DNA from: Lytechinus pictus
Taxonomy: Eukaryota
Length of the DNA: 64,000 bases
Reading direction: 5' to 3'
Assembly (NCBI RefSeq): GCF_037042905.1
Contig: NC_087251.1
Location: 18,106,001-18,170,000, forward strand
A model generated the notes under the pieces. The model saw only the letters and a program-made list of their open reading frames with translations. It did not search any database and was not told the DNA's origin. Below are positions 32,991-61,000 of this stretch, piece after piece (position 1 is the stretch's first letter; the number at the start of each line of letters is the position of its first letter). The translations under genes were made by a program, and so were the position numbers.

Positions 32991-34099
32991 GAACCCTATG
33001 TCAAGCCGCGTGAGGGCTATAGGCCACCGAGCGACAGATAGGTGATTTTCTTCGGCTTATATAACAAGACGCGCCCAGGTACTATAGAGTGGCAGGAATT
33101 TTATAACATATTATGATTTGATTTGCGTAAACTGGTAGATCACACTAGTTAATTTAGGATTTAATGATAATGATAATAACAAGTTTTATGCATAAGCGCA
33201 CCTCCCATCTTGATTATATGCTGAAGGAGCTTCAAAGCACACGTTATTAAAGAACAAAAATATTGACCAACAAAAACTTTAGTGCAATGAGATGTAGGCC
33301 TACCCCAAAAAAGTTTGAAATAGTATCTTAAATATTGATAATTATGATTTCGCAATTGAAACTAAATTGTTATTTGCGTCGTGGGCATTACTCTCGGGGG
33401 TGGGTGGGGGGGGGGGGGGATCGTTGAAATAGAATTGAAATGGAGAGGGAGGGTGATAGAGACCAAACACATGGCTTTCTTCTACGTCTGCTGCATGTGT
33501 TTCATGTTATTATTACTTTGTTTAATTATAAATATTTCCGTAGTTTTTCTGACGTATAGGCCTACATGATATCTCGTTAATATATGGGACCGATGATGTA
33601 CCCACAGCGGATAGATGAAATGCTGGTACGCTCGATCGCTGAGCGCTGCACACGTCCAAATTATGATTCATGACTTTATTCTCCTGGCTTGGATAGCAAT
33701 AAATCATGACGTCACGTGAATCGGATAAAAGAAATTTCGCCCACGTATGCTATTGTCATTGCTTCGATTCGCTGACGTGTATCCGTAGTTAAAAAGCTGT
33801 CACATGAATATGCATATATACCAAAACTCTTTCGACTGGCGATTCTATAATTTCTCAATGTTTTTATGTGAAAATGGCAAATATAGAAAAATTAAACAGG
33901 TTCGTAGATTTTGTTCTATGTTACTTGATAAATGTAATTGGAGAGATTTTAGTAGTGTGCTTTACTTTTCAGTTTATTATGCCAACTCTAAGATATTTAG
34001 ATTAATATCATGGTATTTGGGATATCCAATAATCATTTACTAACCATCAAATCACATACATTGTATATGAATGAGTCGTTTTTGAGACCGCAACTCGGC

Positions 34100-34139
34100 A
34101 TCGCTTCTCGGCCTTTTGGCTAAGATCATGTGTAGTATC
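34100..34139 (+). ncRNA. U2: U2 snRNA gene, 5' part (nt 1-40), interrupted
   Basis: ATCGCTTCTCGGCCTTTTGGCTAAGATCATGTGTAGTATC is the conserved U2 5' end, including the branch-point recognition sequence GTAGTA. Confidence 0.95.
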
Positions 34140-36028
34140 AACAAATACCTGGCTGAATGTCGGATTCCAGCTCCTTGGAAGGTAGCCTCCACCATCCTAC
34201 TTCACAAGGCTGCCCCCACAGAGGATCCTGCCAACTTCCGCCCCATCGCCCTACAGTCATGTCTCTATAAGCTTTTTATGGCTGTGCTTGCTGACCGGCT
34301 GACCTATTGCGCTTGTGAGAACCAGTACCTCAGCCCCGAGCAGAAGTCCGCTCGCCCCTGTGAGGGGTGCTTCGAGCACTCCTTCCTTCTCTCAGCTGCC
34401 CTGAAGGACTGCAGGAGAAACCAGAAGACCATCTGCATCGGTTGGTTGGACCTTAGGAATGCATTTGGAAGCATTCCTCATCCTGTCATCAAGATCGTCC
34501 TGTCCAGTCTGGGTGTCCCTGGTTCGCGTGTTACCCTCGTCATGGATGCCTACAATGGTGCGTCAACCTCGTTCACGCTGACCGGTGGCCAGACTGACAC
34601 CGTACCCATCAGATCAGGGGTGAAGCAAGGCTGTCCGATGTCCCCAATTCTCTTCAACCTGGCCATTGAACTTATCATCAAGGCAGTTAAGAAAAATGCA
34701 TCAAACAACCATCTCGGAGTGACTGTCCAGGGCAAGAACCTCTCCATCCTGGCCTATGCTGATGACCTGTTGCTGCTCAGCCGAGACACTGAAGGCCTCC
34801 AATTCAAGCCTCAGAAGTGTGAAACCCTCACCCTCATCATATCCAAGGGGCTGCTGTCCCATCCCTTACTGAAGAAGACCCCATTGGTCTCCAAGACTCA
34901 CAAGTCTCCAGGAGAGCTATAGGAAGCTGTCGTCAGACATCGAGGCCATTTCTTCCTCCCTTATGGCTCTTGGCAGAAACTGGATGCCATCAAGACCTTT
35001 GTGATACCCATCCTTCAGTATGCATTGCGGGCTACGGAATACCTCAAGTCCGACTTGAAGCCCCTACGAGCAGCCATTACAAAGCATGTGAAGAAGATCT
35101 GACATCTCCCCGTGAGATCATCCAACGCCTTTGTCTTTCCATCCCGGCATTCTGGTGGTTTGGCTTTTGTTGACCCTGGAGTGGATGCTGACATCCTTGT
35201 CGTAACCCAAGCTGTCCGTATCCTAGCATCTGGTGACGACATGGTGAAAGCCGTTGCTCTAGGACTGTTGTCCACAGGACAGTCCATTCTGCACCATCGG
35301 ATGACTGCATCGACAAGTAATTATCCGGGAGTAGTGAGGGTCCTCTGGCGAACTCAGGGAATAGTGGCCAGGCATCATCTCTTTGGTCACGTACAAGGGC
35401 TGCATCGCGTCGCCTCAAGATAAGGATCGTCGGAGCCTCAAGCGGCGACGTCAAGGTTGAGAGTGGAGGTCGTGCCTTCCCCTCCAAGAAGGTGACTTCA
35501 AGCCTCCGCTCTGATCACCACAACGAGCTGGCGGAGAAGCTTCGGTCCCTTCCCGACCAGGGCAAGGTAGCCAGGTCACTCTCCTCGGACAGTTTCGCTA
35601 ACGGTACATCATGGCTGACATCCGGGAGCTTTATCCGGTTCTGTGATTGGCGGTTTATCCACCGAGCACGTTTGAACTGCCTCCCAACCAATGCTGCTGC
35701 TCGGCGTTGGAAGCAGAACATCAACGCGAAGTGCCGAAAGTGTGATCACCAGTTGGAGACGTTGCCTCACATCATCAACAACTGCCGTCCCAACATGGTT
35801 CCGATCCGCCGGAGGCACAACCTGATCCAGAAACGTCTGGTGAAGGCAATCCACCACGGAGATATCTACAAAGACCAACATGTCCCCGGCGACCCGAATC
35901 CAAAGGAGCGACTCGACATCACAGTGGTTGAGGGTGACAAGGTGACCATTGTCGACATCACCATCCCATTAGACAATGGTCCGGATACCCTCTCCACAGT
36001 TGCCAACGCAAAAGTCACCATGTACGAC

Positions 36029-36583
36029 CCCGGGGGGGGGGGGGCACTCGACCAAAAAAAAAAGTAGTGGGTATGTGCCGCGGGCGAGACAAAAAACGGG
36101 GGCCTTGGAGCGGGCTTATTGTAAAAAGGAGGGTCCTCGGAACGGGCTTCGGAACGACAAATGTTTGTGAAAACGGGGGTCATTGGAACGGGTCGCCTGC
36201 GTGTGATTGCATATTCATCCCTATGGAACGGGCATACGTGCATGCAGCTATAGCCCGGCGGCACGGGCGCCGGGTGCGCTAGCGCAGATGCGATGGTCGG
36301 ACAGCGCTCTGCGGCCGCTTTTCACCAAAACTGCGGCTCATTGTAGCAGATCAATACGGCCGGAACGGCGTAACGGAAAATGCGAAGCTTTGGAGCGGAT
36401 TTCTTTCTTCTTTTTTTCTCGATAAGAAGAAAATGCTATGCTTTGGAGCGGCTTTCTTTGTTCTTTTTCTCAATAAGACAAAAATGCTATGCCTTGGAAC
36501 GGAAATTTGAGTGTAAAAATGGGGGTCCCCTCCGCGGCACATACCCACTATGCATTATATACTGAGTGCCCCCCCCCCCCGGG
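36029..36583. mobile_element. Non-autonomous DNA transposon with 8-bp TSD inside the Utopia endonuclease domain
   Basis: TIRs CCCGGG(G)nCACTC / GAGTG(C)nCGGG. TSD tgtacgac at 36021-28 and 36584-91. Confidence 0.88.
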
Positions 36584-36633
36584 TGTACGACACACTGCGA
36601 CAAGATCTGGCCAGCCGTGGCAAGGATGTCGAG

Positions 36634-38034
36634 CAGTGGCGTAACAGGCGGGGGGGCAGGGGGGCAAGCTGCCCCCCCTGGCGGAGCTCACCGGGAAAAT
36701 TAAAAAAACGGGAAAAATAAAAAAAGGGGAGGGAAGGTAAAGGGAAAAGAAAGAAAAAAAGGGGAAAGGAAAAGGGAAAAGAAAACTAAGAAAAAACATA
36801 AAAAAAGGGAAAACGGAAAGATAACGGGAAAGGGAAGGAAAAAAGAACAAGTGAGAAAAAACAATTCGCCCCGATAAACAAATACATTAGCATGATTAGT
36901 AAAGACAGGGAAATAAATTAAAGATGACAAAAAGGCAAACAAAAGCGGGAAATAAAGGCAGAATGGAATTAGCCAAAATCTAAATTGGAAAATAAAGAAT
37001 AGGGACAAGATAACGTACACTACCGGGCTGCTGAGGATTGAGATAACGAGCGGGAAGAAAAATGGATGGTATATAGCATAATGTCGTATGAAAGTCTATC
37101 ATAAACTTGCTAAATCTCCAAAGGCTCTGTCCAAGAGTCAAGACCCCGTGCAGTGGGGGCTCTTCATCTGTAACCTTTAATGGGTTCTATAACGGGCCCC
37201 TATATGGACCCGTCCTGCATTAAGCTTTACGTTGAAGCACTGGCGTACCGGGGGGTGGTTCCACAGCCAAGGGGAAATAAAAGAAAATAAAGGAGGCAGC
37301 GAAATGAGATGAATGAAACAAAAATAAAGGACATGATATTGGCTTTAATGATTAGAATTTCATTTTAACAGGCCATTTTTTTCTGGCTCGCTTCGCTCGC
37401 TGGCGACTTTTTACAAATTTTTCCACATTTGCTATGGTGTGCCCCTCACAATATTTGGATGATTACGATACACAACTGTATTGAATTTATGTGTTGTGTT
37501 AAAGCTATATAAATATACACGCAATTTGATAAAAATAAGTGGCAATCTGTAAGGTTTAAAATGGCTTTGATATCAAGAGGTTCCGGGGCTCTGCCCTGGA
37601 CCCCACCCATAAAGCACTGTTGTATGGATGAGTTTGGACCATGGCCCCCAAAAGTTCTACAACCAAACAAAAAAAATGAGGAAAGAAAGGAAAGTGTATT
37701 ATATTTTTTTGAATATCACGTTAAAATCTATCTTCATGTTAGATTCTCATGAAAAGTTTAATTTTTTTATCTCGCTCGCTTCGCTCGCTCGGGACCTATA
37801 TTAAGCTACTTCTTGCCAGAAGCGCCATACTCGGCCCCCTCGAGCATATATAGCTTCGCCCTGATGCTCACAATCATAACAAAAATCCTGTTCACCGTGG
37901 CGTACATAAAAAGAGAGAAAAAGGGAAAGAGAGGAGGGTGAAATATGATATCATCTTTTTAACATTATGTCAAAATCTATCACAAAATTTGATTTTTGCA
38001 ATAAAAATGTCAAAATTTTTTGCTCGCTCGCTCG

Positions 38035-38072
<38 letters not shown>

Positions 38073-38193
38073 CCCGATACGCCATATCGCCCCCTCAAAA
38101 TTTTTGCCTTATGACGCCATTGCCTGTTCCATGATATGACCGGGAAATTTTTGGCTCTTGCACCCCTGGCCACCGACCCCTGTTACGCCGCTG
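36634..38193. mobile_element. Non-autonomous hAT-like element inside Utopia
   Basis: TIRs CAGTGGCGTAACAGG / CCTGTTACGCCGCTG. Perfect 8-bp TSD atgtcgag at 36626-33 and 38194-201. Confidence 0.88.
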
Positions 38194-38377
38194 ATGTCGA
38201 GGTCTATATGCCCTCGTAATTATCGGCTCCCTTGGTTCGTAGCAAGGGGATAACGAGCAGACTCTCAGCCGTCTCGGCATCTCTCGCCGGTACAGAGCCC
38301 TGATGAACCGTCTCTGCTGTATCGACGCCATCAAAGGCAGCCGAGACATATACGTAGAGCATGTCACTGGTCATCGG

Positions 38378-38775
38378 CAGTACGAATAACTCATTATTAT
38401 ATACATGTATTATTCACAATCAATTATGTTTCAGACAATGTACTTATTATTATTTGCAACCAATTATGTTCCTGACAAAGTACATAAATGCCTGTTAGCC
38501 AAACAGGCATGATGAAAACAAATATGAAACCCCCTTGCACATTAATTTTTTAACAACATAATGCTTTTTAAACAAGCATTGTCCCACACAATATCTAGAT
38601 GTTACCCCATTTAATTTTCATCCTTCGGTAACCTTCATATCGTTGGATTAACATACCTGATTTGTTAAACTGTACTTAGTGAGTGTTGCATATGTTAATA
38701 AATCTGTTCTTTTCAGCTTAATATCTGAAACGCGACTCACCGAGTCACTTGTATATTAAACTGATTTTTTAACAT
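38378..38775 (+). repeat. Left copy of the 398-bp direct repeat flanking the RTE element
   Basis: Matches 42818-43215. The only difference I saw is A38484 versus G42924. Confidence 0.93.
38703..38775 (+). pseudogene. Duplicated internal U2 fragment (nt ~39-111), cut by the RTE
   Basis: TCTGTTCTTTTCAGCTTAATATCTGAAACG...AAACTGATTTTTT corresponds to U2 stems IIa/IIb and the Sm site. Confidence 0.88.
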
Positions 38776-41700
38776 CTCTTGGCTTGCTTCGCGAACGAAG
38801 ATTTATAAAGGCAGTCCACGTCGACTGCAGGCACGCATGTGACTCACAAGGCCAATACGTGATAGACAGGCCCGGCCACAGCGGCCGCAGTCAAAAGTCA
38901 CGTTTGGTGTGGCTGCTGAGGCTTCGCGATTCTTTCTGCGGCGACGTTTCTCCCTCAGGTGATCTTTTCGGGATTCCTCGAAAGAAGAGGCAGCCTGATG
39001 GACTATATGTCGCCAGCTAGCACGGTCAGCAGCCAGAGTAGACCACTGGCAATGATCGATATGGCATGTACCGAGGGACTTCTTCAGGATGTCCTTGAAG
39101 CGTTTCTTTGGAGCCCCTCTGTCACGATTGCCAGTAGAAAGTTCGCCGTACAGGGCTATCTTGGGCAGGCGATGGTCTTCCATTCTTGAGATGTGTCCTG
39201 CCCAACGGAGCTGAGTCTTCAGCAGCATGGCCTCGATACTGGGGATCTCCGCCTGTTCAAGGACCTCAACATTTGTGACATAGTCGGTCCAGTGAATGTT
39301 GAGGATGATCCGGAGACAGCGCTGATGGAAACGCTCCAGGAGTCGCATGTGGTGGCGGTAAGTTACCCACGACTCAGAACCGTACAGTAGGGTGGTGAGG
39401 ACAACAGCTCTGTATACGCTGATCTTGGTGCCCCTTTTCAGATGCTTATTTCTCCAGACCCGCTTGTACAGTCTGCCGAAGGCACTGTTAGCTTTGGCCA
39501 GTCTGTTGTCTACTTCCCTGTCAATCTTGGCGTCTGAAGTAATTGTACATCCCAGGTAGGTAAACTGGTGAACGCTCTTCAACACAGTCTCGCCAATAGT
39601 GATGTGAGGAAGGCAGTACTCTTCCCGGGGTGCAGGTTGATGGAGGACTTCCGTCTTCTTCAAGCTGACTTCGAGTCCGAAGAGTTGAGCAGCCTCCGCA
39701 AAGCAGGATGTCAAGCACTGCAGGGCTCTTTCGGTATGGGCAACGAGGGCAGCATCATCGGCAAAGAGAAGGTCTCTAAATATTTGCTCACAAGTTTTTG
39801 TGTGGGCCTGCAGTCTCCTGAGATTGAATAGACTGCCATCGAGGCGGTAGCGGATGTAGACAGCCTCGTCTTCATCAAGACCTTCCATGGCCTGCTTGAG
39901 CATTACGCTGAAGAAGATACTGAACAGCGTCGGTGCAAGGACACAACCCTGTTTCACACCGTTTGTGATTGGGAAAGATTCGGAGTGATGGCTGTTTAAC
40001 CTAACTTGGCCACGCTGGTTTTCATGCAGCTGGATGATCATACTGAGGAACCTTGGGGGACAACCGAGGCGTTCCAAGATTAGCCAGAGGCCCTTTCTGC
40101 TCACCGTGTCAAATGCCTTGGTTAGGTCGACAAACGTTATGTACAGTCCTTTATTTTGTTCCCGGCATTTCTCTTGGAGCTGACGGAGGACGAAGACCAT
40201 GTCTGTGGTACCTCGGTTTGCTCTGAAGCCACACTGGGTTTCTGGGAAGTGGTCTTCTGCGATGACAGGTACTAGCCTATTCAAGAGCACTCGGGCAAAG
40301 ATTTTTCCTGCGATGGACAGTAGAGTGATACCCCTGTAGTTTGAGCAGTCAGACCTTTCCCCCTTATTCTTGTATAAGGTAATGATGACTGCATCGCGGA
40401 GGTCTCCTGGTAGCTTGCCCTGTTCCCAACAACAGACAAGGAGTTCATGGAGCTTGTTGTGTAACACTGGTCCTCCACATTTCCATATCTCAGGTGGAAT
40501 TCCATCAACTCCTGCTGCTTTGCCACTCTTCATCTGCTCAATGGCTTTTGTAAGTTCTTGCAGAGAGGGCGGTACATCCAGTTCCTCCTTGACTGACAGC
40601 TGGGGGATGCGGAGGGTTGCTGAGTCCTGGACAACCCGGTCAGCTCCAAAGAGTGCCTGGAAGTGCTCAGACCATCGGGTAAGGATAGATGTCTTGTCTT
40701 TGAGGAGTGTCAGTCCATCCGCACTGCGTAATGGACTCTGAGCGTGGTGTCTGGGGCCATAAACAGCCCTGATGGCTTCATAGAAGCTTCTGTAGTCACC
40801 AGCATCGGCGTACTGCTGTGTTCTTGCTGCAAGTTTGGTCCACCACTCATTTTGCATCACACGAAACTTACGCTGGAGGTTGTTGCAGATGTGACGGAAG
40901 GCAGCTTTCTTCACAGGACAGGACGGATGTGACAGGTGGGCCTGGTGGGCCGATCTCTTCTTTTCCAGCAGTTCCTGGATCTCTTTGTTGTTTTCGTCAA
41001 ACCAATCTCTGCTCTTCTTTATGGAAAACCCGATAGTTTCCTCAGATGACTGCAGAATGGAAGCTTTAAGCGAGTTCCATAGTGTTTCAGGAGAAGGATC
41101 CTCTAGGCAGCTGTTGTTTTCAAGCTTGGCCTGTATGCCTACCTGGAACTCAGCTTTCACTTCAGCTGACTGTAGCTTGTTGAGATCAAACTTTTTCCTG
41201 CGGGGGCCTCCCTTTCTTAGCTTAGGTTTGAAATGCATCCTGAGTTTGCAGCGCACTAGGCGATGGTCAGTATGACATTCTGCGCTGGGCATCACTCTGG
41301 TGTGAAGGATGTCGTTTAGGTCACGTCCACGCACTAAGACATAGTCAATGAGGTGCCAGTGTTTAGAACGAGGATGCATCCATGTTGTCTTGAGACTGTC
41401 CTTTTGCTGGAAGACGGTGTTGGTAATGACAAGTTGTTGTTCCATGCAGAGCTCCAGCAGCAAGCGTCCGTTGTCGTTACACTTTCCAACACCATGCCTT
41501 CCGAGTACTCCTTTCCAGGCGACATCATCCTGTCCTACTCTAACATTAAAGTCGCCGAGAATTAACAGCTTGTCGTCTGCAGGGGTGCTTTGGAGAAGTC
41601 TGCGGAGTTCCGAGTAGAACATGTCTTTTTCTGCAGGATCGGCTTGAAGAGTCGGAGCATACACACTAAAAAGTGTTGCATGCTGCTTGTTCTTTAGAGG

Positions 41701-42817
41701 CAGGCGCATGGACATGATGCGGTCGGAATGACCAGTTGGTAGGTTTTCCAGCTTGGAGGCGATGGAAGATTTGAGCATGAAACCAACGCCAGCTAGACGT
41801 CTTTCCGTTGCAGGTTTCCCTGACCAGAAGAGGGTGTATCCAGCGCCCTGCTCATGTAGGCTGCCTTCTTCTGAGAAGCGGACTTCGCTTAGGGCAGCAA
41901 TGTCAACATCAAGCCTTGATAGTTCATGCGCGATAAGAGCAGAGCGACGTTCCGGTCGGTTGCTGTCAGTTCGGTCAAGCATAGTTCTGATGTTCCAGCA
42001 TGCTAGTTTCAGTGTTTGTACACCCTTACAGGTGGGTGTGTACCTTTTTTTCTTTGTTGTTGTTCGACCGCGTGAGAAGATGCCCGTTGACCGCGGCTAG
42101 CCAACTGGGTGATGAGAGACGAGCTTTGGTTAGGCCACCTTTTCTAGGCCCCTCTCCGTGTGGAGCAAGCAGTGCTGTCCCTAGATAAGGCTGCTCGGTC
42201 GTTCAGGGTGCTGCCGAATGATGCCGTCGTCTCTGGGTCAACATCAGGCGACCAATATCCTGAACCGCCTGCATGCAGGATTGGAACTGCGGCTTCCAGT
42301 GACATCTTCCACCTGCCGATTTCGCCCCTTTCCCGTCGCTACAGGGCTTGGTAAGTTTGGTGGCGTTTTGGACATGGACATGTCCTTTATGCCTGCGCTA
42401 TGGAGGTTTAAAGTGGAGTACAGTGTGCGCAGTGCTGGCCCCACCCTTTACACCCGGGGTTCATCTGCCATAGCCTAGCTAGCTGGGACGGTGACAGCGA
42501 GGTCCTCGAGTCGTAGGTTTTACATCAGACTTTCCTTGTCCTAGATGAAAGGCCTGCCAAGGCTGGAGAGTTCCATCTACCCTGATTTGCTGGATGGCCG
42601 CTGTTGGCTCTCCTAAGCCAGCGCCCTTTAAGATGGATCTTACTTTTCATTCCATCAGGGTGTCCAGCCACCCTCCACACCGAAACCCAAAAGGAAAAGG
42701 TGGGGGAGACGGTTTAGTCGCCGTCGACTCGACCCTGAAACAGGTAGTACTGGCTTCCAGGTTACCAGTAGCAGAAAACTGTCAGGTCTCCAGACCTGAC
42801 AAGCCTCCTGACCTGAC
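38776..42817 (-). mobile_element. Apparently full-length RTE-clade LINE
   Basis: Single intact APE-RT ORF, about 0.7-0.8 kb of structured leader, and a very short 3' UTR ending ATCTTCGTTCGCGAAGCAAGCCAAGAG. Bounded by long direct repeats. Confidence 0.93.
38803..41982 (-). CDS. RTE ORF: apurinic-like endonuclease + reverse transcriptase + C-terminal Zn finger
   Basis: 1059 aa uninterrupted. APE motifs: ALSEVR, GDFN, IDY, TDH. RT motifs: NYRGITLL, QCGFR, GVKQG, FADD. C-terminal CGRC...HMRAC. The frame stays open upstream to 42096. Confidence 0.96.
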   Translation of the reverse strand: MLDRTDSNRPERRSALIAHELSRLDVDIAALSEVRFSEEGSLHEQGAGYTLFWSGKPATERRLAGVGFMLKSSIASKLENLPTGHSDRIMSMRLPLKNKQHATLFSVYAPTLQADPAEKDMFYSELRRLLQSTPADDKLLILGDFNVRVGQDDVAWKGVLGRHGVGKCNDNGRLLLELCMEQQLVITNTVFQQKDSLKTTWMHPRSKHWHLIDYVLVRGRDLNDILHTRVMPSAECHTDHRLVRCKLRMHFKPKLRKGGPRRKKFDLNKLQSAEVKAEFQVGIQAKLENNSCLEDPSPETLWNSLKASILQSSEETIGFSIKKSRDWFDENNKEIQELLEKKRSAHQAHLSHPSCPVKKAAFRHICNNLQRKFRVMQNEWWTKLAARTQQYADAGDYRSFYEAIRAVYGPRHHAQSPLRSADGLTLLKDKTSILTRWSEHFQALFGADRVVQDSATLRIPQLSVKEELDVPPSLQELTKAIEQMKSGKAAGVDGIPPEIWKCGGPVLHNKLHELLVCCWEQGKLPGDLRDAVIITLYKNKGERSDCSNYRGITLLSIAGKIFARVLLNRLVPVIAEDHFPETQCGFRANRGTTDMVFVLRQLQEKCREQNKGLYITFVDLTKAFDTVSRKGLWLILERLGCPPRFLSMIIQLHENQRGQVRLNSHHSESFPITNGVKQGCVLAPTLFSIFFSVMLKQAMEGLDEDEAVYIRYRLDGSLFNLRRLQAHTKTCEQIFRDLLFADDAALVAHTERALQCLTSCFAEAAQLFGLEVSLKKTEVLHQPAPREEYCLPHITIGETVLKSVHQFTYLGCTITSDAKIDREVDNRLAKANSAFGRLYKRVWRNKHLKRGTKISVYRAVVLTTLLYGSESWVTYRHHMRLLERFHQRCLRIILNIHWTDYVTNVEVLEQAEIPSIEAMLLKTQLRWAGHISRMEDHRLPKIALYGELSTGNRDRGAPKKRFKDILKKSLGTCHIDHCQWSTLAADRASWRHIVHQAASSFEESRKDHLREKRRRRKNREASAATPNVTFDCGRCGRACLSRIGLVSHMRACSRRGLPL

Positions 42818-43215
42818 CAGTACGAATAACTCATTATTATATACATGTATTATTCACAATCAATTATGTTTCAGACAATGTACTTATTATTATTTGCAAC
42901 CAATTATGTTCCTGACAAAGTACGTAAATGCCTGTTAGCCAAACAGGCATGATGAAAACAAATATGAAACCCCCTTGCACATTAATTTTTTAACAACATA
43001 ATGCTTTTTAAACAAGCATTGTCCCACACAATATCTAGATGTTACCCCATTTAATTTTCATCCTTCGGTAACCTTCATATCGTTGGATTAACATACCTGA
43101 TTTGTTAAACTGTACTTAGTGAGTGTTGCATATGTTAATAAATCTGTTCTTTTCAGCTTAATATCTGAAACGCGACTCACCGAGTCACTTGTATATTAAA
43201 CTGATTTTTTAACAT
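42818..43215 (+). repeat. Right copy of the 398-bp direct repeat (Utopia 3' end plus U2 fragment)
   Basis: Direct repeat of 38378-38775 at an offset of 4440. Confidence 0.93.
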
Positions 43216-43290
43216 AGGCCATGGAATAGGGGCTTGCTCCATCCTGGCCACGGATTGGCCCGGTATTGCAGTACTCCGGGATCAAATCAC
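43143..43290 (+). ncRNA. U2: U2 snRNA gene, 3' part (nt ~39-186)
   Basis: Continues through the Sm site, stem III (ATGGAATAGGGGCTTGCTCC) and stem IV CCCGG-TATTGCAGTACT-CCGGG with the U2B''-binding loop. Confidence 0.92.
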
Positions 43291-43761
43291 TCTTTCTTTC
43301 AAAGCTACCAACCTTTTCCCATCTTTCGTTCTTGTAAACGATAACAACAACAGCAACAATAATAATAATAATAGTAATAATAATGATGATGATAATAATA
43401 ATTATAATGATAATGAATATACAACATAAATTGTGCTTATGTTTCTAAACGCACAAGAAAGAAAAAATTAAAGAAACAAATTCAAACAAGTGAATGAATA
43501 GTAAATTAAGAGGATGTACTACACATCGAAATAATTAAAAAATCGAAAAGTTAAACTATGAAAATGTGATTTCTCATATCATTCTTCGTAACTCACAGCG
43601 AAAAAAAACCCAATAGCATCGACAACCCTATAATAACTTCATAACAATATACAATTACTAATTGAAATCTTTATGTTCACGAGGATGGATGTTAACTTAG
43701 TGCACGAAATTGTACAAATAAATATATTGTCCTGTTCATTTCATTCTCTTATCAATCCCAC

Positions 43762-58086: not shown

Positions 58087-61000
58087 TTAATAAACACATT
58101 TACATATTAAGTTCTGAATTACATTACTTTGGGAAAAAAAGATAATCTTATATGAATGCAGAAGATATTGTTTAAGTTTTCCTTTGAAATTTTGTATTGA
58201 ATTACATTGTATAATATCCTTTGAAAAAGAATTCCATAATTTTGGACCAGTAAAAACAAATGTCTTCTGTGCAAACGATGTTCTATTCTGAGGTAAATGA
58301 AAGGAACTCGTCTGGCGAGTGAAGTGCTTATGAATTGTATCATTTTTTACAAACATATCATTAAAAGGTAACGGTAATTGTTTATTGATAAACTTGTATA
58401 TTAATTGTCCGAGTTGAAAAGAATATAAATCTTTAACCTTCAAGACTTTATTTCTCAAAAACAGAATACTTGTATGTGCCCTGAATTCTGTATGACTAAT
58501 AATACGAATCACTCTTTTTTGTAATATAAAAAGTCTATTAATTTGGGAATTCGCTGCGTTACTCCATGCAACAACTCCGTAATTTAAGTATGGTAAAATT
58601 AACGTTGAATATAATGATAACAAAATATAATGGTGTAAGAAGTGACTTAATTTTCTAATGACACCAATGTTGCGAGCAATGATTTTACAAATATTATCAA
58701 TATGTGATTTCCAAGAAAGTTTTTCATCAATGATCAGTCCCAAAAATTTAGTAGATCGCACTCTTTGAATGACAGTATAATTCAAAATTACATCTTTTGG
58801 TACAGTCGTAATCTTGTTGCTAAATAGCACATAGCTAGTTTTTTTCTAGGTTAAGAGAGAGTTTGTTAGCTGTTATCCAATTAGAAACATTTTTTAGTTC
58901 GTCATTTAATATTTGCGTCAATTGCTCTGGGTCGGGGTGCGACATAAATATATTAGAGTCATCAGCGAAAAGTATAAATTGAAGCAATCTAGATGACATA
59001 TCAATATCATTTATAAAAGTAATGAACAAAAGTGGGCCAAGAATGCTGCCTTGTGGAACTCCAAAAAGGACAGGTTTACGTTCAGAAACATTACAATCAA
59101 GTGAAACGAACTGCGAACGCCGGGTTAGATAATTCTTGAACCACTTTAGTGGTTCCCCTCTAATTCCATAATGAGAAAGTTTATAAAGGAGAATGTTATG
59201 ATCAACTGTATCGAATGCCTTTGAAAAATCTAAAAACAAACCAATCGTATTCGAAGACTTGTCATAAGCTTTGGCAACTGTTTGAACAAAAGAAAGTATT
59301 GCATGGGAAGTGCAACTCTTTTCCCGGAAACCAAATTGAGTATCGGATAGGATGTGCTTTTTAAAAAAACATATGGTTCGTATATGAACCAATTTTTCAA
59401 TAATTTTAGATAAGTTTGTAAGCAATGAAATGGGTCTGTAGTTACTTGCTAAATAACTATCACCCTTTTTGAAGACTGGTATTATCTTAGAAATGTTCAT
59501 TGATTTTAGAATATTTCCCGATGATAATGACAAATTGAATATATAAACAAGAGGGTCAATTATATAATTCATATTTTTCTGTAAAAATGTTATCAAATCC
59601 TGCACTTTTATTTAATTTTAGGCCAGATATAATTTTAATTATCTCCTGTGCGTTCGTAGGAGAGAAAAACATAGAACTTTGATTTCTATCCCCCAGATAT
59701 TGATGAAATGAATTGGAGTTTGTTGGTATACTTCTAGAGAAGTTAAATCCAACTTGTGAAAAATAATTGTTGAAAATATTTGCCATCTGAACTTTATCTT
59801 CAATAATAGAATCATTGTGCATAAGCTTAGTTATCTTTGAAAACTTTGGTCCATTATTGAGGGTAGAATTGATCGATTTCCATGTTTTTTTAGATCATTC
59901 TTGCATTGATTAAATTTATCATGGTAATGTGTCTTTTTAGCAGTACGGATAACCCCTGTTAGTATATTCTTATAATTAGTATATTGGCTCCTAGTATGCT
60001 CAGTTAATCTTGATATACAGTGCGTATTAAAAAAAAGGTTACACTTAGAAAAAATCCTGTAAAATTATACATTTGTAATATCCTGAAGTTTTTTCCACAT
60101 TTTAACATTGGTGCAGATCCATTTAAGCAAATGACGATATAACTGTCGAAAAATATTTCCGCTTGAGTGAGCACCACTTACTTTTGAAAAGTTAGTGAAA
60201 AATGATTTGCGCAGAACTTTGAAATAGTTATGCGAATAAAAGTAGACCTTAATCATGAACAACACGTGGAATTTAGCTAGTAAAATTGATTTGAAGATAT
60301 CTTTTACCTTTTTTAACTTGTTTCCTTACCGAAAACACTTCAAAGAGTGCATTGCGCCCCACCCCACTCCCCCACACACCGAGGCCATCGTGACGATATT
60401 TGCCTTACACTGAGCTGTGATTTACATGAAATGACTTACGCTTGATTTTCATTTTGTTAATCATTGTCAAGCTTGGAAAAGGTGTGGAGAAACAAGTATT
60501 AAATGAAAAATGAAATGTAAACCCATAATAAATGATAAAAACTTAGTAAAAAAATGCTGGAGATGTCTGATATAAACCTTTGTTCAGATTTAGTAATGTC
60601 CTCAGATCCAGCTGGCACAAAAGGGTAAAGTTTGTGCTTACTAAGTGTTGAAATTTCAATTTGGGTGGCAAAATTGTTACAAAATGCTTGAATGTATCCG
60701 TTTTATTTCAATTGACTAAAAGTGCAAGGGAAATGTATGAGAAATGTTTCGCAGGGTAAGTTTGATTTCGCCCTTTCCCCCTGACACAGCGTAAAAACAA
60801 GCATTTCTGCGCAAACAGATTTCTGCGAGCTTTACAAAAATGGACAGTGCTCACTCAAGTGTAACATTCTGTCAAAACTTTTACTTTCATTGGATAGATG
60901 AGACCCAAACCCAAGATTATATGTGAAAAAATTACCCACATGTTGTATATTTTTTAATTCCCAGGGCTTTTTCAAAGTGTAAACTTTTTTTTGATACGCA

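Follow-up and report, generated by a model that had tools for sequence, protein, structure and literature searches.

A stand-alone U2 spliceosomal RNA gene of the sea urchin Lytechinus pictus has been cut in two in the window (the whole stretch of 64,000 nucleotides that was analyzed, positions 18,106,001 to 18,170,000 of NC_087251.1). The element that split this solitary, promoter-bearing gene was very probably a Utopia retrotransposon, and two elements with terminal inverted repeats (TIR), then a LINE, came later. The kind of event is already known, as a 2015 paper (PMC4640811) described Utopia, the site it uses in U2, and its occurrence in sea urchins. The locus is nonetheless a clean textbook case of a retrotransposon inserting site-specifically into a small RNA gene, since the two halves of the target are both preserved and the later insertions can be dated against one another. 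Its parts are as follows.

34040 to 34099, plus strand: upstream flank of the disrupted gene, probably promoter-proximal, with motifs common to other U2 genes.
34100 to 34139, plus strand: nt 1 to 40 of the U2 snRNA gene.
34140 to 36028, plus strand: Utopia body from reverse transcriptase (RT) to restriction-like endonuclease (RLE), 5'-truncated and decayed (Pfam RVT_1, E 1.5e-24; tblastn against an intact copy).
36029 to 36583, no strand assigned: 555-bp TIR element (MITE) with inverted ends and an 8-bp target duplication.
36584 to 36633, plus strand: stretch of Utopia ORF that separates the two TIR elements, aligning to intact copies and reading YDTLRQDLASRG in frame.
36634 to 38193, no strand assigned: 1,560-bp nonautonomous TIR element with 15-nt inverted ends and an 8-bp target duplication.
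38194 to 38389, plus strand: end of the Utopia ORF (tblastn, aa 1183 to 1248, 80% identity, one internal stop).
38378 to 38775, plus strand: left arm of a 398-bp target duplication, equal to 42818 to 43215 with one mismatch (38484 versus 42924).
38390 to 38702, plus strand: Utopia 3' UTR, first copy, ending TTAATAAA.
38703 to 38775, plus strand: U2 nt 39 to 111, the extra copy from the LINE's target duplication, identical to 43143 to 43215.
38776 to 42817, minus strand: young 4,042-bp LINE with APE and RT (Pfam Exo_endo_phos and RVT_1), with a 1,097-codon open frame at 38803 to 42096.
42818 to 43142, plus strand: last 12 nt of the Utopia ORF and the 3' UTR, second copy.
43143 to 43295, plus strand: U2 nt 39 to 192, decayed (Rfam U2, 105.8 bits; 141/154 aligned columns identical to the genome's U2).

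The boundaries of the nested LINE are fixed by full-length copies (about 99 to 100% identity) that stop at exactly the same bases, and the family looks active. The LINE carries APE and RT in a single frame, with 27 nt after the stop codon and no terminal A run; a single long APE and RT frame, followed by a very short 3' UTR that lacks poly(A), is typical of RTE, which makes this LINE a candidate RTE element. Database look-up of this LINE and of the Utopia protein returned only generic names. The preliminary description had listed the LINE among the later insertions, and it is indeed a later arrival, but it adjoins the Utopia tail and U2 nt 39 to 111 rather than lying within the Utopia body. 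The 398-bp target duplication generated by the LINE left two copies of the Utopia tail and of part of U2, and at the extra copy U2 nt 38 to 105 aligns at 98.5% (blastn). Its position between the two arms places its first nick in U2, not in Utopia.

Long duplications are not the habit of this family, as all five of the other full-length copies examined show short or unclear ones, and the 398-bp repeat is therefore an exception. That exception lends some weight to reading the repeat as an assembly artifact, such as merged haplotypes, or as an older tandem duplication, and the one position at which the arms differ might be allelic. We nevertheless think either of these unlikely: the repeat is direct and identical at 397 of 398 positions, its arms abut the family-wide ends of the LINE to the base on both sides, and it would be improbable for a LINE to land exactly on the joint of an older tandem duplication. 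A genuine target duplication of this length, made by an apparently active LINE family, bears on the spacing of the two nicks of target-primed reverse transcription.

Both TIR elements are noncoding in the window, and both show the 8-bp target duplication and terminal inverted repeats of hAT elements, which makes them candidate members of that superfamily. The 555-bp element is flanked by TGTACGAC (36021 to 36028 and 36584 to 36591), and paralogous Utopia copies lack it at that site; of 2,080 candidates in the genome, 40 were scored, and all 40 are copies with 94 to 98% identity. The 1,560-bp element lies between copies of ATGTCGAG (36626 to 36633 and 38194 to 38201) and has at least 38 genomic copies at 87 to 94% identity with the same exact ends. 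The order in which the two arrived would be based only on these family identities (87 to 94% versus 94 to 98%), which are a weak clock.

The other 555-bp copies first listed (on C10 and C3) adjoined 1,560-bp copies, and we considered whether the two move as a composite. This was rejected, since at each of the three loci both elements have 8-bp duplications of their own, with spacers that vary from locus to locus. A search with the 555-bp element alone found 40/40 scored copies standing alone, again among 2,080 candidates; given these stand-alone copies and the separate duplications, the pairing is an effect of candidate ranking.

The layered history proposed at the outset, with Utopia first and three other insertions afterward, is borne out by the nesting of those three elements in or across Utopia, which makes them later than it. 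Their sites are empty in paralogous copies, there are 8-bp overlaps at the joints, and the assigned boundaries match the ends seen across the families of the LINE and of the TIR elements. At the Utopia segment between the TIR elements, both joints show the 8-bp overlap when aligned to intact copies.

For the disrupted gene itself, an intact U2 of the same genome (L001:1501-1692) served as reference; the survey of the genome for U2 scored 48 of about 50,000 first-look candidates. The 5' piece matches this reference at 40/40 positions, as the preliminary description had it. A candidate A30T mutation in this piece was rejected, as T is the normal U2 sequence of the species. Downstream of the insert, where the rest of the gene had been claimed, the Rfam U2 match (E 2.5e-20) has its U2 part beginning at 43143 with nt 39, and this 3' piece is identical to the genome's U2 at 136/142 positions for nt 39 to 180. 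Excising the insert rebuilds a U2 of 191 nt, slightly longer than the roughly 186 nt first estimated, and a scripted identity count of the joined halves against intact U2 gave 179/192 aligned columns identical. The gene described as complete is thus complete in extent, but its 3' part is decayed.

Within 40 nt upstream of the 5' piece lie TTGTATAT and GCAACTCGG, which in alignments are common to the U2 array units on C8, as well as AACCATCAAA, which is common to the U2 gene on C19. Sharing of these motifs with other U2 genes argues that the disrupted U2 is a genomic gene, not a retrocopy, and the flank probably has a promoter role. It could be supposed that the 5' U2 piece instead came as a head on the element's RNA, or by template switching, so that a U2-headed retrocopy landed in an old U2 fragment, and full-length copies in this genome do sit directly behind U2 nt 1 to 58. 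This is highly improbable, however, because the TATA-like and proximal motifs of other U2 genes in this genome recur in the 40 to 60 nt before 34100, where an RNA-derived head would lack them, the U2 head stops at the target site itself (nt 38 to 40), and U2 resumes in the 3' half with no gap in the gene.

The Utopia copy that we take to have split the gene is a damaged one. The segment at 34140 to 36028 covers aa 505 to 1174 of an intact copy by tblastn and is 87% identical to full-length copies at the DNA level. All three motifs by which the insert had been recognized (RT, CCHC, and RLE) are present, the CCHC being kept along with most of the RLE. The true protein end in the window is ...HRQYE*, with the stop codon at 38387 to 38389. 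The element's 3' end also reads as first described, TTAATAAA and then TCTGTTCTT; a second Utopia/U2 junction, between 38702 and 38703 and followed by U2 nt 39 to 111, was absent from that reading. The 5' junction with U2 is ambiguous by 2 nt. The suggestion that a full ORF could be rebuilt here by removing the nested elements fails, as the copy is 5'-truncated and its frame is broken: it starts at about codon 505 of 1,248, lacking the N-terminal 504 codons, and what is left has a deletion of 16 codons as well as frameshifts and stops.

Intact copies are found elsewhere in the genome. Two of 4,037 bp (L046 and L047) adjoin U2 genes and differ at 11 of 4,037 bases; their open frame of 1,245 codons encodes three N-terminal C2H2 fingers, RT, CCHC, and RLE. 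In the protein of L046 (P0001), the fingers lie at about aa 64 to 170 and RVT_1 at 527 to 786, followed by the RLE, with a zf-RVT match at aa 1047 to 1091 that falls below the Pfam cutoff. Its alignments to solved R2 proteins (E 7e-68 for the whole protein) cover the RT and also the CCHC/RLE part, where the PD, D, and K motifs are in place. Neither an APE (Exo_endo_phos) domain nor a Myb domain was found in the full-length element at E ≤ 0.1. Scanned permissively against Rfam, the two full-length loci gave no ribozyme family at E ≤ 1, the only matches being U2 and one miRNA far below the cutoff.

The expectation that other copies would be flanked by U2 on their 3' side held throughout: all eight family 3' junctions found in the genome, representing seven events, read TTAATAAA followed by TCTGTTCTT, which is U2 from nt 39. 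On the 5' side, L046 has U2 nt 1 to 58 and thus a 20-bp target duplication of nt 39 to 58, and at L050 stacked copies are spaced by exactly these nucleotides. In two diverged lineages (L046/L047 and the first unit of L050), no more than 8 nt separate U2 nt 58 from the start codon.

These observations suggest the following sequence of events. The Utopia endonuclease would have nicked U2 DNA at the nt 38/39 boundary, immediately past the GUAGUA that binds the branch point, and reverse transcription of Utopia RNA would have been primed from the 3' end released there. Copying may then have halted, or the copy may have been trimmed, about 1.5 kb short of the Utopia 5' end, before joining to U2 at nt 38 to 40 across a 2-nt TC overlap. 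The dead copy would then have taken in both TIR elements, whose insertions each duplicated 8 bp of target. The LINE was presumably the most recent arrival, with a first nick in U2 at the nt 111/112 boundary and a second 398 bp away, which would have duplicated the Utopia tail and U2 nt 39 to 111.

With so short a leader, the element may depend for its expression on transcription of the host U2 gene. It is possible, though somewhat doubtful, that sea-urchin-type Utopia provides neither a 5' UTR nor a promoter itself and is expressed as a U2(1-58)-headed transcript from the U2 Pol II promoter. If so, this would be the snRNA-gene counterpart of the cotranscription of R2 with rRNA, and the terminal AATAAA would put the 3' end of the RNA inside U2 sequence that could pair with the nicked target. 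The 20-bp duplication and 8-nt leader of the full-length copies make U2-promoter-driven expression testable. These two features, and two intact, near-identical full-length copies beside U2 genes, are modest additions to what was known.

Probable membership in the Utopia clade is supported by the target site, by the order of the domains, and by the resemblance, judged by eye, of the 3' end. Utopia elements, placed inside the NeSL clade, encode one protein with one to three N-terminal zinc fingers, RT, another zinc finger, and an RLE of the PD..D/ExK type, and the two intact copies show this domain order. According to the portions of PMC4640811 that deal with the site, the 3' end of Utopia is joined to U2, which resumes at nt 39, and the window element sits at this published site, as had been proposed. 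Named relatives with 41% identity belong to Pelodiscus sinensis and Camponotus floridanus, both given as Utopia hosts in that paper's account. That the insert is instead Keno or some other non-Utopia element at the same U2 site, shared or hit by chance, is scarcely credible: Keno, a U2-targeting LINE, does have the same 3' junction position in U2, but in the paper's description it is defined by an APE endonuclease (PMC4640811) and the element here has an RLE with no Exo_endo_phos match, seven independent events at one site exclude a chance hit, and the 3' end resembles that of Utopia-1_LV by eye.

Compared with the published sea urchin families, the putative Utopia described here has much in common. 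An AATAAA tail followed by U2 nt 39 and an RLE-type protein are shared with Utopia-1_LV and Utopia-1_SP as presented by Kojima and Jurka (2015, PMC4640811), and the flanking U2 letters in their S1 Fig equal those of the L. pictus genome by eye. Utopia-1_LV is 4,030 bp in their S1 Table, versus 4,037 bp for the copies here, and the last ~60 nt in S1 Fig are alike by eye. These resemblances in U2 site, domain order, and 3' end point to Utopia, which was already on record in this host group; the 3' end is not identical to that of Utopia-1_LV and therefore belongs to another species or subfamily. The passages of PMC4640811 on echinoderm families show them only at their 3' junctions, and the 20-bp duplication and 8-nt leader are absent from those passages. 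For reptile Utopia, the same paper's relevant text gives a 20-bp target duplication, as at L046 and L050, but only weak site specificity, versus 8/8 junctions found in U2 here.

Beyond Utopia, solved R2 proteins align to the element's RT, CCHC, and RLE, and R2 likewise targets a multicopy RNA gene. R2, however, has 28S rDNA as its target and an N-terminal Myb domain, in contrast to the junctions here, all of which lie in U2, and to a protein with no Myb match. A second comparison concerns the LINE. R9 of rotifers, which Gladyshev and Arkhipova are said to have described in 2009, is reportedly an rDNA-specific RLE element that regularly makes an exceptionally long target duplication. Both are non-LTR insertions, but the long duplication is regular in R9, whereas here it belongs to a single copy of an APE-type LINE among six examined.

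The U2 gene in the window, which belongs to an 812-Mb eukaryotic assembly, is split in two, and joining the pieces rebuilds it, as the preliminary description had proposed. The Rfam search returned a single U2 match in the 64 kb (43093-43295, 105.8 bits, E = 2.5e-20), of which the genuine U2 portion starts at 43143 with TCTGTTCTT, that is, at nt 39. One of the genome's intact U2 copies (L001:1501-1692) served as the standard for comparison. Against it, 34100-34139 is identical to nt 1-40 (40/40), while the piece from 43143 matches at 136 of 142 positions (nt 39-180), or in 141 of 154 aligned columns (nt 39-192); joined by script, the two give 191 nt with 179/192 aligned columns identical. The 5' piece (34100-34139) is thus unchanged against 13 differences in 154 columns of the 3' piece (43143-43295), several of them at CpG sites, and the probability of an unchanged 40-mer at the latter's rate is about 0.03.

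Upstream of 34100 lie TTGTATAT and GCAACTCGG, which the repeat units of this genome's U2 array also have, and AACCATCAAA, which recurs at another solitary U2 gene. Because other U2 genes have these motifs, the interrupted U2 was a real gene including its presumed proximal control region, and an origin as an RNA-derived copy was ruled out. A AAGGGGTAATAA..CCAAAGAAAGAA block, present 3' of the genome's other U2 genes, is absent here (43296-43360).

The insert had been described as an RT, CCHC, and restriction-like endonuclease (RLE) element, and all three do read on the plus strand from 34140 onward: an RT (Pfam RVT_1, E = 1.5e-24), then a CCHC motif and the RLE. Genome searches for further copies gave 8 matches with a 3' UTR query and 7 with an RT-RLE query, among them two full-length copies:

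L046:3196-7232 (C19), minus strand as given for the L046/L047 pair, full-length Utopia copy, 4,037 bp
L047:4455-8491 (C8, within the U2 array region), minus strand as given for the pair, full-length Utopia copy, 4,037 bp

These differ at 11 bases over 4,037 bp, and each has an open frame of 1,245 codons. In the L046 protein (P0001), three C2H2-type fingers lie near the N-terminus, RVT_1 covers aa 527-786, and a CCHC finger and an RLE are also present. The RLE can be aligned with solved R2 proteins and keeps the PD, D, and K motifs (E = 7e-68 for the whole protein); neither an APE nor a Myb domain was found in P0001. Relative to P0001, the window copy begins at about codon 505 and lacks a further 16 codons through a deletion; frameshifts and stops also interrupt it, and its DNA identity to the full-length copies is about 87%. 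It is a fossil truncated at the 5' end.

All 3' ends of the family found in the genome (8/8) end in TTAATAAA and are followed by U2 from nt 39, which bears out the expectation that other copies would be flanked 3' by U2. The eight junctions comprise two in the window (one event), one each in L046, L047, L049, and L048, and those of two stacked units in L050. U2 nt 38-192 follows at 98.7-100% identity in L046, L047, and L049; 28 nt of U2 remain in L048, and about 20 nt behind each L050 unit. Resumption at nt 39 corresponds to the site published for Utopia, and also for Keno (Kojima and Jurka 2015, PMC4640811), so that insertion at the known Utopia site stands.

The 5' junctions are more varied. 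In L046 the flank is U2 nt 1-58, so that nt 39-58 (20 bp) are duplicated; in L047, nt 42-58 alone are left. At L050:5384-6822 (C8:33.35 Mb), diverged Utopia units are stacked head to tail, and the ATG 8 nt behind the spacer is kept in the first unit and lost in the second. The spacer is exactly U2 nt 39-58, as would be expected if insertion, with nicks at 38|39 and 58|59, had happened repeatedly. Target duplications of 20 bp are known from reptile Utopia families and none from arthropod ones, and for echinoderm families the portion of the source available shows 3' junctions alone (PMC4640811). In the window, U2 ...GTATC|AACAAA stands where the intact element has ...CTTC|AACAAA; TC is common to both sides, so the exact position of the joint within it is ambiguous. 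Such a joint is consistent with a truncated copy having been end-joined while most of the upstream duplicate was lost. At the other truncated copies the 5' U2 remnant is shorter (L048) or lacking (L049, L050).

Three further elements lie within the Utopia copy or its flank:

36029-36583, 555-bp TIR element, target duplication TGTACGAC at 36021-36028 and 36584-36591
36634-38193, 1,560-bp TIR element, target duplication ATGTCGAG
38776-42817, minus strand, LINE of 4,042 bp, a single frame of 1,097 codons encoding both APE and RT

From the nesting, Utopia is the first insertion at the locus. The other three came later, as first proposed. In paralogous Utopia copies both TIR sites are empty, and the flanks meet with 8-bp overlaps. 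The 555-bp family, with 2,080 candidates in the genome and 94-98% identity in 40/40 scored copies, is both abundant and young. The 1,560-bp element has at least 38 genomic copies (87-94% identity, same exact ends). Elsewhere in the genome (L054-L058), full-length LINE copies share about 99-100% identity, several of them 99.7-100%, and have precisely the same terminal bases; 5'-truncated copies are also numerous, and the LINE family appears to be active. No ATG precedes the APE domain in its long frame. Identity to family members, a weak clock, suggests the order 1,560-bp TIR element, 555-bp TIR element, LINE. Copies of the two TIR elements also lie 31-460 bp apart, in the window's order, at L060:1501-3679 (C10) and L063 (C3). 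A composite of the two was ruled out, as each has its own 8-bp duplication; the pairing is a candidate-ranking effect of the search.

On either side of the LINE stands one arm of a 398-bp direct repeat (38378-38775 and 42818-43215, 1 mismatch). Each arm contains the final 12 nt of the Utopia ORF, the 313-nt 3' UTR, and U2 nt 39-111. The original layout of a split U2 with nested insertions survives, but it had missed the second Utopia/U2 junction this creates at 38702|38703; with that correction and the 5' truncation, the first observation and interpretation of the locus hold. We read the repeat as the target duplication of the LINE, whose priming nick would have separated U2 nt 111 from nt 112, with the second nick 398 bp away. 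The five other full-length LINE copies all have short or unclear duplications, which makes this one exceptional, and the repeat may instead be an assembly artefact. Gladyshev and Arkhipova are said to have described, in 2009, exceptionally long target duplications in another non-LTR element.

The genome's tandem U2 array on C8 has a period of about 1,037 bp and at least 45 units, with more in L047; it lies at C8:33237223-33284622 and continues to about 33.315 Mb. One of its units (L052:2467-2605) is cut short at nt 139. Solitary U2 genes occur on C4, C7, and C19. The window copy sits in the solitary U2 at C7:18.14 Mb and the L048 copy (C10) between U2 fragments, while the remainder lie within or alongside the array (C8:33.31 and 33.35 Mb) or adjoin solitary U2 genes on C19 and C7. 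Elsewhere in the window, two adjoining minus-strand open frames of 258 and 252 codons (58087-59611) look, by eye, like an RT (YRPISLL ... FADD) from a further non-LTR retrotransposon.

A leader of just 8 nt separates U2 nt 58 from the start codon in L046, L047, and the first of the diverged units stacked in L050. Because this leader is so short, Utopia transcripts may start upstream, at the U2 promoter, a proposed use that resembles the dependence of R2 on rRNA transcription. Counting against such expression, nt 29-31 of this species' U2 are an ATG from which 256 codons stay open, in a different frame from the Utopia ORF. Ribozyme families had no match in the two full-length Utopia loci at E <= 1, and promoters or co-transcription have 0 occurrences in PMC4640811.

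Keno was excluded as the source of the insert because it is defined by an APE endonuclease (PMC4640811). The assignment to Utopia first made holds on target site, domain order, and the likeness, by eye, of 3' ends. The 3' ends of sea-urchin families are printed in S1 Fig of PMC4640811, where two from Lytechinus variegatus, Utopia-1_LV and one further copy, resemble those of this genome over the last ~60 nt, and the U2 letters printed behind them are the same as here; Utopia-1_LV spans 4,030 bp (S1 Table). Named protein relatives with 41% identity across the entire RT-RLE region belong to Pelodiscus sinensis and Camponotus floridanus, both Utopia hosts in Table 1 of the same paper. This kind of element is already known, as are its target site and host group, and a 2026 review (PMC13580325), in the part available, has Utopia as now a routine find in surveys of site-specific retrotransposons.
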